A stretch of DNA of 63,712 bases, counting the filler, from an uncultured Methanosarcinales archaeon (GTDB lineage: Archaea; Nanobdellota; Nanobdellia; Woesearchaeales; GW2011-AR9), in NCBI GenBank assembly GCA_964434885.1. It is 9 parts of 9 records of this genome, joined end to end, with 100 filler letters (N's around TTAATTAATTAA, not from the genome) between each part and the next. Parts side by side here need not be neighbours in the genome. Positions count along the whole stretch, not along the records: positions 25,237 to 32,855 come from CAYSWQ010000043.1; positions 32,956 to 40,150 come from CAYSWQ010000044.1; 7 more parts are not named here. One strand, 5' to 3'. Position numbers: made by a program. Below are positions 30,001 through 33,000 of the stretch, piece by piece. How positions within the stretch are numbered: the stretch's first letter is position 1; every line of letters begins with the position of its first letter.

Positions 30001-33000
30001 ACCAAATCAAATTTATTTTTTCTTATTTTGCTTTCTATTTTTTTTAAATCCCATAACAAACACCAATAATCAACCAAGATATTATTTTTTGTCGGCAACA
30101 CTAACCCTTTATTCTGGTTCCATTCTATCTTAGTAATCTTATTCAATGGTTGTTTAGATTTCATCACCCACAAAATTGAATGACCTTGCTCTCTAAATAT
30201 TTTTGAATAAACTTCTTCTAAAAAGACATGGTCAGTAGGATATTTCTGGTCTACTAACATCAAAATTCTCATGTAACTATTTTTAGCAACCTATTTAAAT
30301 AGGGTATGGAAAAGAGTTCCTGAATGAAAAATATAACTCTTGGTATTATTCTTATGATTACTTGCACCTTTTTTACTGCTTTTGGAGAATTCTTATTCAA
30401 ACTAAGTGCCAAATCTTTTCAATGGCACCCAGTTAGCTTGTTAACTAATTATACTTTGATCTTAGCTTTTGCTATCTTCTTTTTGGGATCAGTACTATTA
30501 ATCATTGCTTTGAGGTTTGGTGACCTTTCCGTCCTTTATCCTTTCATTGCCTTGAATTTTATTTGGGTAATGCTAATCTCTTTTTGGTGGTTGGGAGAAT
30601 ATATTAATCGTTTTAAAATTGGAGCCGCCATCCTAGTTGTTTTTGGTGTGGTATTAATAGCTAAAGGGGGTGGAGAAAGTGAGTAATTTGGTTTATGGGT
30701 TTTCTTTTGCCGTAATCGCCACCATTATTGGTTCTTTTGGAGCCTTATTTTTTAAGTATGCATCAAAAAGAATTACACCTTCTCTTTTAGGTTTGATAAA
30801 GAATTATTATTTATTGATTGGTTTCTTTTTATATGGTATTTCTTCACTAATCTATGTTTATGCCTTAACTTTTGCTGATCTTTCCACTTTGTATCCAGTT
30901 GCCGGTTTAAGTTACGTTTGGATTTCTTTGCTTTCCATCAAATTTTTGAAAGAACAGATGAATGATTTAAAATGGTTCGGAATTCTCATGATTTTACTAG
31001 GGGTCTTTTTGGTTAGTTTTAGTACGTAAAAAGAATTTTTTTACCAGGTCAGATATTCACAATCTTTATAAGACGCTAGAAATCTGATTATTCTATTAAT
31101 TAATCAGGTGAGATACATGTCCAAGACAAAAAAATTGAGGGAATTATTTGCTAAAGATGGGTTTTTTAGATTGGTGGGGGCTCACAACGGACTCACTGCC
31201 AAGTTAGTGGAAAAAGCCGGTTTTGAAGGAGTCTGGGCTTCTAGTTTGGAAATGTCTGCTTCTCATGCCGTTCCCGATGCTAATATCTTAACTATGACTG
31301 ATTATCTTAATATGGCTATCAATATGAATGATGCAGTATCAATTCCTGTTGTTGTTGATGTTGACCAAGGTTATGGCAATTCTAGTAATGTTATCAGAAT
31401 GATTAAAAAATTTGAAGCAGCTGGTATTGCTGGAGTAATCATGGAAGATAAAAAATTTCCAAAACAAAATAGTTTATTGGCAGGAGGTAGACAAGAGTTA
31501 GCTTCCATTTCAGAGTTTTCCGGAAAAATTATGGCGGCCAAAAATGCTCAAACTGATCCTGATTTTATGGTAATTGCCAGGGTGGAGGCTTTGATTGCTG
31601 GTTGGGGTCATGAAGAAGCGATGAAAAGAGCTAAAGCTTATGTTGAAGCTGGAGTTGATGGTATTATGATTCACTCCAAAAAATCAGATCCGGCAGAAGT
31701 CGTTAAGTTTGTGGCAGAGTGGGATTCCGAAGTTCCCATTGTGATTGTTCCCACCAAATACCCTTCCATGAATGAAGCAATGATTAATAATTATCCCAAA
31801 ATCAAGATGGTAATTTATGCCAATCATGTGATTAGAAGTGCAGTTACTTCTATCAAAAGAACTTTAAACGAAATCCGAGAAACTGGAGGGATTGAAAGTG
31901 TTAATCAGAGCCTCATTCCAGTTAAAGAACTATTTGAATTACAAGGGACTTTTGAAATGAAAGATGATGAGGAAAAATTTCTCAAAACAGACACTGAGCC
32001 AATTTCAGCTATAATCGCTGCTGCTGGAAAACCAATCGATACAAAATTAAAAGAAGTTTTTTTAAATGATACACCGACCTGTATGTTAGATATTAATGGT
32101 AAATCATTGTTACAACGTAATGTTGAATTATTGAATACTGTGGGAATTAACAATGTTCACGTAGTAACTGGTTATTGTGGAGAAAAAATTAATGTTGAAG
32201 GAATCAATAAGATTGAAAATCTTGAATTTGAACAAACCAAAGCATTACATTCTATTATGGCTGCTAAGTCTCAAGTTAATGGTAAAACAGTAGTATTGTA
32301 TTCTGATTTGTTGTTTGATAAAGATATCTTAAACAATCTAGTTAATAAAGAAGGAGATATTGTTTTAGTTGTAGATTCTTCATATAAATTGAATCCTTCT
32401 AGGTATAATAAGAAACTTGATTTAGTTAAAGCTAAGAAAGAACCGGTTTTAGGAGAAAGGGCATTAAAATTAGATGATGATAATGAGGTAGTTAAGATTG
32501 GTTCTACACTGGATCCTGACGAAGCTAATTTTGAATTCATTGGGATGGCAATGCTATCAGCCCAGGGTACAGATTTATTGCATCAAGTCTACACCGAAAA
32601 TATTGCTGAACTCAAAAACAAAGATTTTACTGCTTTGATACAGAAAGTGATTGAATTAGGCCACAAAGTTGATTGTTTAGAAATTCACAAAGGTTGGACA
32701 GAAGTTCATACTTTTGATGATTATAAGAATGTTTCAAGAATAGTTTCCCAACGAAGTGATGAGTTGAATAAAAATGATTGAGTGTACCAAACTAGCTGAA
32801 ATTTTTAAAGCGAATAAATTTACTTTTTTTGCTGGTCTCCCAGATAGTACATTTANNNNNNNNNNNNNNNNNNNNNNNNNNNNNNNNNNNNNNNNNNNNT
32901 TAATTAATTAANNNNNNNNNNNNNNNNNNNNNNNNNNNNNNNNNNNNNNNNNNNNCAGTTTTTTCTTCCTCAACTAGTTCTTCAGCTGGAGCTTCCTCTT

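Follow-up and report, generated by a model that had tools for sequence, protein, structure and literature searches.

A probable Pnt-type gene cluster for CMP-2-aminoethylphosphonate in a small marine Woesearchaeota-like archaeon

Gene content and contiguity of the locus

The window analyzed here (63,712 nucleotides) comprises nine of the 66 contigs of a 1.07-Mb genome, separated by spacers of N, within which contig C43 (7.6 kb) occupies positions 25237-32855. Completeness of the genome is estimated at 92% and contamination at 0, and the order to which this archaeon belongs includes a MAG labelled Candidatus Woesearchaeota. DNA of the locus was found in metagenome runs labelled marine or seawater (eight entries from two studies), bearing out the marine origin originally assigned to it, and no RNA run was present among the runs listed for this DNA.

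C43 harbors a gene encoding a PEP mutase (PepM) fused to a nucleotidyltransferase (NTase), the start of a phosphonopyruvate decarboxylase (Ppd) gene, and genes for methyltransferases, an amidotransferase, a glycosyltransferase and small membrane proteins (Table 1). The pair of EamA-like proteins is conserved in L009, a contig of a related MAG, and the 119-aa member may belong to a flippase for lipid-linked sugars as one of its subunits. Homologues of the AsnB-type amidotransferase adjoin PepM in L009, L048 and L055.

Table 1. Features of contig C43, in window coordinates
Feature	Position	Strand	Evidence and remarks
SAM-dependent methyltransferase	25346..26065	+	PF13489 5.7e-12, PF08241 8.1e-12
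Asparagine-synthase-like glutamine amidotransferase (AsnB type)	26081..27877	-	PF00733 1.6e-96, PF13537 8.4e-52
SAM-dependent methyltransferase, Cys-rich N-terminal segment	27909..29060	-	PF13847 1.8e-16, PF08241 3.2e-16; 70% identity to L009 counterpart
GT4-family glycosyltransferase	29064..30272	-	PF00534 1.3e-21, PF13439 4.8e-11; conserved in L009
Small EamA-like membrane protein, 120 aa, first of pair	30324..30686	+	PF00892 1.7e-5, under Pfam cut-off (25.5 vs 28.2 bits); 60% identity to L009 counterpart
Small EamA-like membrane protein, 119 aa, second of pair	30670..31029	+	PF00892 4e-10
PepM-NTase fusion	31117..32781	+	PepM domain ~31117-31998, NTase domain ~31990-32778; PF13714 3.8e-55, PF12804 1.5e-6
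Ppd, first 27 codons	32774..32855	+	Cut by C43 end; continues on C16 (L001:16318-17385, minus strand)

The end of C43 overlaps the reverse complement of contig C16 (17.4 kb) by 23 nt, of which 22 agree (18 nt exact; a Leu versus a Val codon). L009 is colinear across this break, with genes for AsnB, a methyltransferase, GT4, two EamA-like proteins, PepM-NTase, Ppd, PntC and GT4, and a contig of metagenome run X1 spans the C43 end and extends 403 nt past it. GC contents of C43 and C16 (32.5% and 31.6%) match the rest of the genome. From the overlap and the colinearity of L009, we infer that C43 adjoins C16 and that the pathway genes are contiguous once the two are joined. Profile matches to two GT4, one GT2 and two PMT_2 glycosyltransferases, two B12-binding radical SAM (B12-rSAM) enzymes and small EamA pairs confirm the glycan-gene setting described in the initial annotation.

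Predicted enzymes of the CMP-AEP route

The PepM-NTase reading frame is open on the plus strand from a GTG at 31108 to 32781, and the ATG at 31117 agrees with the N-termini of homologues. Numbered from this ATG, residues 110-119 read EDKKFPKQNS, whereas the phosphonopyruvate hydrolase (PPH) 2dua reads EDKTFPKDTS at the aligned site, placing a PepM-type Asn where PPH has Thr; in the accessible text of Rice et al. 2019 (PMC6697681), EDKxxxxxNS serves as the discriminating filter for Ppm. The PepM domain shares 42-48% identity with solved PepM and PPH proteins, the fusion protein matches PepM 5unc at 3.6e-89, and the predicted fold of the domain reaches a TM of 0.93-0.96 to PepM/PPH structures (5unc, 1pym). 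With the motif and both profile matches present, the earlier assignment of a PEP mutase fused to a nucleotidyltransferase is confirmed for the N-terminal domain, whose mutase activity is predicted. No other gene of the genome matches PF13714, and the architecture of the fusion recurs in over 2580 homologues of ~550 aa; the closest occur in MAGs labelled Woesearchaeota, and the nearest full-length relatives (75, 69, 59, 53 and 53% identity) all come from archaeal-labelled MAGs, one of them on a 428-kb contig. In NCBIfam comparisons, the domain lies just under both equivalog cut-offs, with 315.9 against 319.55 bits for TIGR02320 (PEP_mutase), 3.6 bits short, and 324.8 against 374.4 bits for PphA, so that the PphA model nominally outscores the PEP_mutase model.

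A fold search with the whole fusion returned matches to the PepM domain only, and the NTase domain was folded separately. The resulting model (pLDDT 89.7) matched PntC best (6pd2/6pd1; E 2.8e-16, TM 0.74-0.77), followed by 4jd0 and then LicC (1jyl). In LicC-type enzymes, the G-x-G-T-R-L loop and the lysine of T-P-K have functional roles. The fused domain lacks the LicC signature AAGLGTRL/TPK and reads AAGKPIDTKL and TPT (DTPT), a departure common to all 25 aligned homologues, in which G307, G331, R337, D400 and D423 are conserved instead. By its modelled fold, the domain fused to PepM appears to be a putative PntC/LicC-like nucleotidyltransferase.

The Ppd start codon at 32774 overlaps the PepM stop (ATGATTGA), and Ppd is predicted to be translationally coupled to PepM. 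The C43 piece of Ppd aligns to residues 9-26 of the L009 Ppd and the C16 piece begins at residue 21; the C16 part (355 aa) scores 456.3 bits with TIGR03297 (cut-off 312.5), and both TPP-binding domains (PF02775 and PF02776) are matched. Together with the contig overlap, carrying its one mismatch, and the colinearity of L009, this score upholds the view that only the contig break splits the gene. The next gene on C16, within the glycan cluster, encodes a full-length fusion of a cytidylyltransferase and an AEP transaminase, scoring 431.7 bits with TIGR03301 (AEP aminotransferase; cut-off 360.8). Its residues 5-624 align with residues 4-611 of Tde-PntC (PDB 6pd1, E 4e-145), an end-to-end match in keeping with its initial description as a bifunctional PntC-type enzyme. 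According to the accessible text of Rice et al. 2019 (PMC6697681), the AEP amine is contacted in Tde-PntC by Glu104 and Glu196; these align with E108 and E203 of the C16 protein. The protein is thus a predicted AEP- and CTP-using PntC homologue, with a class-V transaminase fused to a LicC-like NTase.

In the proposed route, PEP would be supplied by enolase (525 bits) or PEP synthase (883 bits), both present in the genome as first reported, and the PepM domain would isomerize it to phosphonopyruvate. The TPP-dependent Ppd would decarboxylate phosphonopyruvate to phosphonoacetaldehyde, drawing the unfavourable equilibrium forward; the C-terminal PLP domain of the PntC fusion would then transaminate the aldehyde to 2-aminoethylphosphonate (2-AEP), and its N-terminal cytidylyltransferase would convert 2-AEP and CTP into CMP-AEP. 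This product would be the donor for attachment of AEP to an envelope glycoconjugate made by the GT4, GT2, GT-C (PMT_2) and flippase-like proteins. All four enzyme activities (PepM, Ppd, AEP transaminase and cytidylyltransferase) are identified by sequence and are contiguous and conserved, so that a complete de novo CMP-2-AEP route is predicted to be encoded. The claim that the archaeon can make and activate 2-AEP is accordingly sustained at the level of genes, every step being encoded among glycosyltransferases, GT-C enzymes and flippase-like proteins.

Attachment of AEP to a surface glycan appears plausible from this gene context. The transfer step has no recognized enzyme, because no LicD-type transferase was found in the genome and its sole CDP-alcohol phosphatidyltransferase (PF01066) lies on C7, away from the cluster; a candidate is a cytoplasmic protein of the alkaline-phosphatase superfamily with a Thr-type, NPP-like signature (L001:9313-10437). 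A reading of the "sulfatase" and the neighbouring rSAM-SPASM protein as a sulfatase/maturase (anSME) pair was rejected, as the C/S-x-P-x-R signature is missing and the protein resembles NPP-type enzymes with Thr. In the genome, estimated to be 92% complete, no degradative route was found: PhnX scored 22 bits, far short of its cut-off of 220, and nothing matched PhnJ.

In addition, contig C15 encodes PhnD, PhnC and PhnE side by side (L002:4017-6647), each above its equivalog cut-off (266.6 vs 261.1, 315.7 vs 266.1 and 295.7 vs 216.7 bits), consistent with the phosphonate ABC importer reported there beside the region of an FrbH-like gene. The latter (L002:109-1947) combines an NTase at residues 1-126 with a class I/II aminotransferase fold at residues 277-599. 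Its FrbH-like label reflects this domain architecture of NTase plus PLP decarboxylase. Scores remain below the CobD (186 vs 290.6) and HisC (188.6 vs 276.6) cut-offs, and the C-terminal half is closest to PDB 6oux, a "threonine phosphate decarboxylase-like enzyme" (1.8e-42), so that the fusion could equally make CDP-ethanolamine or CDP-aminopropanol. An exact tandem repeat of 5.4 kb lies on C15 as well. In one genome of the same family (L053), PhnDCE directly adjoins PepM, and an importer of this type may serve the salvage and re-activation of free phosphonates rather than phosphorus nutrition.

Known systems and alternative readings

The Pnt system of Treponema denticola (Tde1415 PntC-AEPT, PDB 6PD1/6PD2; Rice et al. 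2019, PMC6697681) contains the same NTase-AEP transaminase fusion (E 4e-145) with the AEP-contacting Glu residues kept, has Ppm and Ppd in the same cluster, and is likewise presumed to act in cell-surface tailoring. In contrast, the host here is an archaeon, whose envelope therefore lacks peptidoglycan or LPS; its cluster includes B12-rSAM, GT-C (PMT_2) and AsnB-like amidotransferase genes, and the system is known from genes. Both PepM-nucleotidyltransferase fusions and PntC are described in the accessible text of Rice et al. 2019 (PMC6697681), where the most frequent type of Ppm fusion is that with a MobA-like NTP transferase (PF12804), and clusters with two PntC, one fused to Ppm, are often observed according to the accessible text of Li and Horsman 2022 (PMC8942020). 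The present fusion shares with this class, as those texts portray it, the domain order (PepM N-terminal, PF12804 C-terminal), the length of ~550 aa and the company of another PntC, as in large AEP gene-cluster families, whereas its fused domain departs from the LicC nucleotide-binding signature. The texts consulted name no substrate for the fused domain.

The early steps of fosfomycin synthesis (Fom1/Fom2/FomC/Fom3) follow a shared logic, in that PepM is fused to a cytidylyltransferase and the cluster includes a B12-rSAM enzyme. The exact Fom1 architecture, accompanied by Ppd, Fe-ADH and B12-rSAM, is found in relatives within the order, whereas in this genome the NTase is of another family and C-terminal, a transaminase replaces the alcohol dehydrogenase, and the rSAM enzymes fall in no assigned subfamily. 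The methylphosphonate cluster of Nitrosopumilus maritimus and the phosphonoglycoprotein cluster of Prochlorococcus SB share the pepM-ppd core beside glycosyltransferases, nucleotidyltransferases and "arylsulfatase"-type genes. Such clusters have been read as producing phosphonate esters on surface polymers (Lockwood 2022, PMC9381506) or glycoproteins (Acker 2022, PMC8931226), and degradation genes are absent from the producers of the latter study, just as neither PhnX nor PhnJ was found here. Unlike those organisms, this archaeon has the AEP branch with a PntC fusion rather than HEP/MpnS, and is a DPANN-type host with a genome of ~1 Mb.

Collectively, the locus is quite likely a Pnt-type (phosphonyl-tailoring) cluster of a small marine Woesearchaeota-like archaeon, supplying CMP-AEP for an envelope glycoconjugate. 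That CMP-AEP would instead provide the head group of a phosphonolipid is improbable: CDP-alcohol phosphatidyltransferase genes adjoin PepM in 4 of 12 related neighbourhoods (L048, L049, L053 and L059), and AEP clusters with phospholipid-synthesis genes are described in the accessible text of Li and Horsman 2022 (PMC8942020), but this cluster contains no such gene, the single PF01066 gene being on C7, and is dominated by glycosyltransferases and GT-C enzymes. A catabolic function, in which the PepM-family domain would act as a phosphonopyruvate hydrolase and the transaminase would work on imported phosphonates for phosphorus nutrition, is very improbable. The higher PphA score (324.8 vs 315.9 bits) and the encoded PhnDCE importer would fit this function; however, the score is 50 bits under the PphA cut-off, the motif position holds Asn rather than the Thr of PPH, the gene also encodes an NTase domain and is apparently translationally coupled to Ppd, and neither PhnX nor PhnJ was found in the genome. 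A bacterial origin of C43 and C16, through mis-binning into an archaeal MAG, is equally hard to credit. In its favour, the two contigs are short (7.6 kb and 17.4 kb) and some homologues with 49-66% identity are labelled bacterial (Spirochaetota, Elusimicrobiota, Chloroflexota), but their GC content (32.5%/31.6%) fits the genome, the contamination estimate is 0, the nearest full-length relatives of the fusion (75 to 53% identity) are all archaeal-labelled, including the one on a 428-kb contig, and fusions of this type recur in four further genomes of the order.

A further reading extends the Pnt-type interpretation and does not exclude it: the end product may be a modified phosphonate, such as C- or N-methylated AEP, made on the CMP-activated intermediate by B12-rSAM and/or SAM methyltransferases, with the PepM-fused NTase activating the modified species. 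This reading, by analogy with Fom1/Fom3, in which CMP-HEP is converted to CMP-HPP, is possible but rather unlikely. The genome has three distinct B12-rSAM genes, all located in its two phosphonate-related regions (two on C16, one on C15). Of the 12 neighbourhoods retrieved from the order, 8 contain B12-rSAM homologues no more than 10 kb from PepM; the same distance holds for 11 of the 34 B12-rSAM homologues found in five PepM-positive relatives. A single 1059-aa protein of genome G227 (L050:3798-6974) unites B12-rSAM, AEP-transaminase and SAM-methyltransferase domains, and L010 encodes an NTase-methyltransferase fusion. The Fom1 architecture (PF01467-PepM), a precedent quoted in the accessible text of Rice et al. 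2019 (PMC6697681), occurs in 8 of the 12 neighbourhoods, accompanied by Fe-ADH in seven of these eight and by B12-rSAM in five. Against a modified product, sugars of the glycan could instead be what the B12-rSAM enzymes methylate, the PDB relatives of these enzymes vary widely (AprD4, TokK, TsrM), none of the methyltransferases of this genome is significantly matched by the methyltransferase domain of the G227 fusion, and the relatives showing the link to PepM are kin and not independent. Of their initial label "Fom3-like", the class holds, with B12-binding and Radical_SAM domains present, but no subfamily cut-off is reached by those on C16 (HpnJ 226.9 of 577.6, PhpK 141-147.5 of 600, Sden_1168 134-148 of 575), the top NCBIfam matches being HpnJ and BchE, far under cut-off.

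Distribution and significance

Motif-positive PepM was detected in 20 of 400 other genomes sampled from the order, four of which share the fusion type with a C-terminal NTase; an earlier count of PEP_mutase in 73 of 822 Woesearchaeales was not reproduced by this stricter search. The C-terminal-NTase type shares just 36-42% identity with the N-terminally fused type, which occurs in the 19 other PepM-positive genomes (16 of those 20 plus three genomes of the same family). Novelty is limited: the pathway is real and belongs to a well-known kind. PepM of five marine Woesearchaeota MAGs is listed in Acker et al. 2022 (PMC8931226; Dataset S1), as the caveat in the initial annotation about DPANN PepM in supplementary tables had anticipated. 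Among publications retrieved for phosphonate, pepM and DPANN, DPANN archaea are mentioned for phosphate transporters only (one "pepM" match was the chromatography column PepMap); titles and abstracts retrieved for phosphonate and Woesearchaeota held nothing on phosphonate synthesis, and the searchable part of the supplements of Lockwood 2022 (PMC9381506) gave no match. What is new is the clustering of B12-rSAM genes with PepM throughout the order, a B12-rSAM/AEP-transaminase/methyltransferase fusion among them, which hints at an unknown modified phosphonate. In addition, the locus provides a contiguous documented example in the lineage, and the sample an estimate of frequency in the order.

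A large part of the dissolved organic phosphorus in the sea consists of phosphonates, whose producers are known only in part. It is conceivable, though rather unlikely, that Woesearchaeota-type DPANN archaea are an overlooked and chemically unusual marine source, whose surface group is an undescribed modified phosphonate made on a CMP-activated intermediate; examples would be C- or N-methylated AEP here and 2-hydroxypropylphosphonate-type groups in relatives with Fom1/2/C/3-like sets. No support was found in the literature searched for marine-DOM propylene as a sign of hydroxypropylphosphonate esters, and it is not counted as evidence here. The commitment of ~25 kb of a 1-Mb DPANN genome to a phosphonate-decorated envelope suggests that the modification matters for a cell living attached or close to other cells, with possible benefits in shielding from phosphatases or glycosidases, or in host contact. 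The recurrent link between B12-rSAM enzymes and PepM, together with the multi-domain fusions, offers concrete candidates for new phosphonate-tailoring chemistry.

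Enzymes of the predicted AEP pathway

The initial annotation of a PEP mutase with EDKxxxxxNS fused to a nucleotidyltransferase (PepM-NTase) is borne out by the active-site motif EDKKFPKQNS and by Pfam, which finds PEP_mutase at 3.8e-55 and assigns the C-terminal half to NTP_transf_3 at 1.5e-6 (29 bits vs. a cut-off of 27). No other gene of the genome under study (G000) matches PF13714. The ORF opens with GTG, and the ATG three codons downstream, the previously annotated start, fits the N-termini of 25 homologues. The NCBIfam equivalog models leave PepM and phosphonopyruvate hydrolase (PPH) unseparated, both scores being below threshold (PphA 324.8, cut-off 374.4; PEP_mutase 315.9, cut-off 319.55), and the motif residues therefore matter: PDB alignments place EDKRFPKVNS in PepM 5unc and EDKTFPKDTS in PPH 2dua at this position. 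Superposing the AlphaFold model (mean pLDDT 86.4) on solved structures of PepM and PPH gives TM 0.93-0.96 at 42-48% identity.

Modelled alone (pLDDT 89.7), the fused NTase domain has PntC (6pd2/6pd1; E 2.8e-16, TM 0.74-0.77) as its top structural matches, followed by inositol-1-phosphate cytidylyltransferase and then LicC. Its nucleotide-binding loop reads AAGKPIDTKL, whereas LicC has AAGLGTRL, and TPT stands for TPK; this departure is common to 25/25 aligned homologues, in which other residues are conserved. We read the domain as a probably functional, distinct subfamily. Among motif-positive Ppm proteins, 59.5% are reported to be fused, with PF12804 the most frequent partner at 33% (Rice et al. 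2019, PMC6697681).

Contig C43 carries the PepM locus at its 3' end, where the ATG of phosphonopyruvate decarboxylase (Ppd) overlaps the PepM stop (ATGATTGA) and is followed to the contig end by an open frame, 27 codons in all (MIECTKLAEIFKANKFTFFAGLPDSTF). The reverse complement of contig C16 opens in frame with GVPDSTFKAW... and encodes a 355-aa Ppd part scoring 456.3 bits on the Ppd equivalog (cut-off 312.5); the two ends share a 23-nt overlap with one mismatch, 18 nt being exact. That C43 joins C16, as had been proposed, is supported by a related MAG contig (L009, PepM 69% identical) that keeps one gene order through the break (AsnB, methyltransferase, GT4, two small EamA proteins, PepM-NTase, 375-aa Ppd, PntC, GT4), by the C43 fragment matching residues 9-26 of the L009 Ppd, on which the C16 part begins at residue 21, and by a public contig of run X1 that spans window positions 31511-32855 with one letter different and extends 403 nt past the C43 end. 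On two archaeal MAG contigs (L011, L012), Ppd consists of two adjoining ORFs (158 + 182/186 aa) upstream of PepM-NTase, an arrangement that recalls the alpha/beta split of sulfopyruvate decarboxylase.

Following Ppd on C16 is a gene that combines a nucleotidyltransferase at the N-terminus with a class-V aminotransferase at the C-terminus, and its assignment as a PntC-type AEP transaminase/cytidylyltransferase holds: on the AEP aminotransferase equivalog it reaches 431.7 bits (cut-off 360.8), and its alignment with Treponema denticola PntC-AEPT (6pd1, E 4.3e-145) runs over the full length. Glu104 and Glu196 of Tde-PntC contact the AEP amine (Rice et al. 2019, PMC6697681), and both align with Glu in the G000 protein.

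The PepM domain would convert PEP to phosphonopyruvate, which Ppd, translationally coupled to PepM, would decarboxylate to phosphonoacetaldehyde; 2-AEP would then come from the PLP domain of the PntC fusion, and CMP-AEP from its NTase domain, using 2-AEP and CTP. These four enzyme activities are predicted from gene order, motifs, family-level scores and a full-length match to an enzyme already characterised and crystallised. The genome also encodes enolase (525 bits) and PEP synthase (883 bits), as annotated; one TGA is reported inside the enolase match, possibly the gene-end stop. The initial observation of the AEP pathway is confirmed, and its interpretation is supported.

Features of the AEP locus, other G000 loci and related loci
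Feature	Location	Strand	Size	Content
Contig C43	window 25237-32855		7,619 bp	GC 32.5%, matching rest of genome
PepM-NTase, from GTG	window 31108-32781	+		
PepM-NTase, from ATG	window 31117-32781	+		
PntC-type fusion	L001 (C16):14349-16241		630 aa	
Candidate AEP transferase	L001 (C16):9313-10437			Sulfatase 8.7e-25, Phosphodiest 7.4e-11
NTase + PLP fusion	L002 (C15):109-1947			FrbH architecture
Exact tandem duplication	L002 (C15):7154-12526 and 12523-17895		5,373 nt, period 5,369 nt	PssE-like GT, Polysacc_synt flippase, B12-rSAM, LAGLIDADG-domain ORF, ribosomal protein L11 gene
Enolase match	C18:1622-2848	-	415 aa open frame	
Asn/Thr-rich protein	window 20678-25136	+	>1486 aa	Laminin_G_3, right-handed beta-helix, NosD-like repeats
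Two MacB/FtsX-type permease genes	window 33378-37046	-		two-ORF insert between
ABC-transporter ATPase with intein	window 38515-40092	-		PF14528 7.9e-23, Intein_splicing 3.3e-12, ABC_tran 3.7e-22
PepM and Phn genes, same-family genome G009	L053:9301-13364			PF01467-PepM, then directly PhnD, PhnC, PhnE
Other branch points beside same PepM-NTase type	L048:14789-16213; L049:17448-18821			
Fusion, related genome G227	L050:3798-6974	-	1059 aa	B12-binding, Radical_SAM, Aminotran_5, Methyltransf_11
Fusion, closest relative	L008:1148-4639	-	1164 aa	Fe-ADH, PF01467 (CTP_transf_like), NTase, AEP transaminase

Cluster context, transfer and environment

C16 further carries GT4, GT2, two B12-binding radical-SAM (B12-rSAM) enzymes, rSAM-SPASM, an alkaline-phosphatase-superfamily protein, two PMT_2 (GT-C), an NAD-dependent epimerase/dehydratase and a methyltransferase, and C43 carries two methyltransferases, an AsnB-like amidotransferase, GT4 and two small EamA-like membrane proteins. 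This context argues for biosynthesis and surface attachment, since GT4, GT2, GT-C, flippase-like, epimerase/dehydratase and amidotransferase genes surround the pathway and no C-P cleavage genes were found in the 92%-complete G000 (PhnX, best 22 bits vs. a cut-off of 220; PhnJ). Marine phosphonate producers have been interpreted likewise (Acker et al. 2022, PMC8931226; Lockwood et al. 2022, PMC9381506).

G000, 92% complete by estimate, has no detected LicD, and its sole CDP-alcohol phosphatidyltransferase sits on contig C7, outside the cluster. A candidate AEP transferase is the sulfatase-like protein on C16, in which the C/S-x-P-x-R formylglycine signature is absent; the protein reads PYTIASNHATLSG, which we take to be of the Thr-nucleophile NPP/phosphotransferase type. 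Its homologues adjoin PepM in 4/12 related neighbourhoods, the L057 copy being 46% identical. The Asn/Thr-rich protein, which runs off the end of contig C42 and has many N-x-S/T sequons, is plausibly a glycoprotein of the cell surface, and it may accept the glycan made by the cluster.

Contig C15 encodes PhnD, PhnC and PhnE, each above its own equivalog cut-off, in agreement with the annotated phosphonate ABC importer, together with a small CTP_transf_like protein and a fusion of an NTase with a CobD/HisC-like PLP domain. For this fusion, annotated as 'FrbH-like', the domain architecture stands; the PLP half is closest to the 'threonine phosphate decarboxylase-like enzyme' 6oux (1.8e-42) and histidinol-phosphate aminotransferases, and the protein may as well make a CDP-aminoalcohol. 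The tandem duplication on C15 could be an assembly artefact or very recent.

G000 comprises 1,069,348 bp in 66 contigs (estimated contamination 0), of which the 63.7-kb window takes nine with N spacers between; other window contigs carry archaeal-type genes (ELP3, RNA polymerase Rpb4/RpoF, DUF655). An intein containing a LAGLIDADG homing endonuclease interrupts the ABC-transporter ATPase; the ATPase ORF begins near the end of contig C44, and the N-extein may be missing. Between the permease genes lie a nucleotidyltransferase gene with TrmB-HTH and NTP_transf_2 domains and a 189-aa ORF that Pfam does not match; this insert resembles a pair of the minimal-nucleotidyltransferase type. The marine occurrence noted initially agrees with locus DNA in 8 runs of 2 studies labelled marine or seawater metagenome; in 4/8 of these, half or more of the sampled words are present, and the best run may be the source sample.

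PepM neighbourhoods in related genomes

PepM-NTase homologues number more than 2580 among 8000 scored candidates. Among species-representative genomes, the five closest relatives over the full length (75, 69, 59, 53 and 53% identity) all come from archaeal-labelled MAGs (two Candidatus Woesearchaeota, one 'Methanosarcinales', one unclassified archaeon, one Undinarchaeota), and 10 bacterial matches cover the PepM domain only. At E <= 1e-40 for the PepM domain, PepM was found in 20/400 other sampled genomes of the order, and in 13/282 high-quality genomes with G000 counted. The order is labelled Woesearchaeota because the protein of one member (G163) is identical to NCBI 'phosphoenolpyruvate mutase [Candidatus Woesearchaeota archaeon]'. 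EDKx5NS occurs in 24/24 loci examined (G000, three same-family matches and the 20 order matches). Four of the 20, G163 among them, have the C-terminal NTase fusion of G000; in the remaining 16, as in the three same-family genomes, the protein is extended at its N-terminus and identity is only 36-42%.

Twelve neighbourhoods (four C-terminal, eight N-terminal type) were picked by match rank and contig size, leaving out the other 11 PepM-positive genomes. PF01467-PepM (Fom1 architecture) occurs in 8/8 N-terminal types; near PepM, Ppd is found in 9/12, AEP transaminase in 2/12, Fe-alcohol dehydrogenase in 7/12 (every one N-terminal type), stand-alone PntC-like NTase in 7/12, and CDP-alcohol phosphatidyltransferase and a sulfatase-like protein in 4/12 each. 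From these counts, the AEP/PntC form of G000 is a minority in the order, and the HEP-type route predominates. No Ppd was seen within 10 kb of PepM at L053. An aldehyde dehydrogenase beside PepM-NTase in G163 suggests phosphonoacetate, and in the related genome G360 a CTP_transf_like/citrate-synthase-C fusion adjoins PepM-NTase with no Ppd nearby.

Radical-SAM fusions and the published record

The distinct B12-rSAM genes of G000 number only three; the C16 cluster contains two of them, and the third is found near PhnDCE on C15. B12-rSAM genes lie within 10 kb of PepM in 8/12 neighbourhoods, and 11/34 homologues do so in five PepM-positive relatives, counts that overstate independence because the genomes are kin. 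Of the annotation 'Fom3-like', the enzyme class stands and the subfamily does not, the name being a class label only, because no NCBIfam subfamily cut-off is reached (HpnJ 226.9 of 577.6; BchE 203.9 of 481; PhpK 147.5 of 600; Sden_1168 148.2 of 575). The G227 fusion is 53% identical to G000 genes in its transaminase part and 30% in its rSAM part, and an NTase is fused with a methyltransferase at the related locus L010. In this lineage, such fusions connect the phosphonate pathway with rSAM and methyltransferase chemistry; the B12-rSAM enzymes could also act on sugars.

The enzymes, fusions and cluster logic are all previously described. Dataset S1 of Acker et al. 2022 (PMC8931226) gives PepM in five MAGs classified Woesearchaeota or Woesearchaeia, one such MAG with the catalytic sequence MEDKLFPKQNSL and another, in Dataset S2, also with MpnS. 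The main text of that paper makes no mention of the five MAGs, and 'Nanoarchae' has 0 occurrences. PepM in marine Woesearchaeota is thus already in print, in a supplement only. No paper discussing phosphonate biosynthesis in DPANN was found in the open-access papers searched, with the Lockwood et al. supplements mostly outside that search. The locus is of interest chiefly for the lineage of its host and for the recurring B12-rSAM and methyltransferase fusions, which may indicate an undescribed phosphonate modification.
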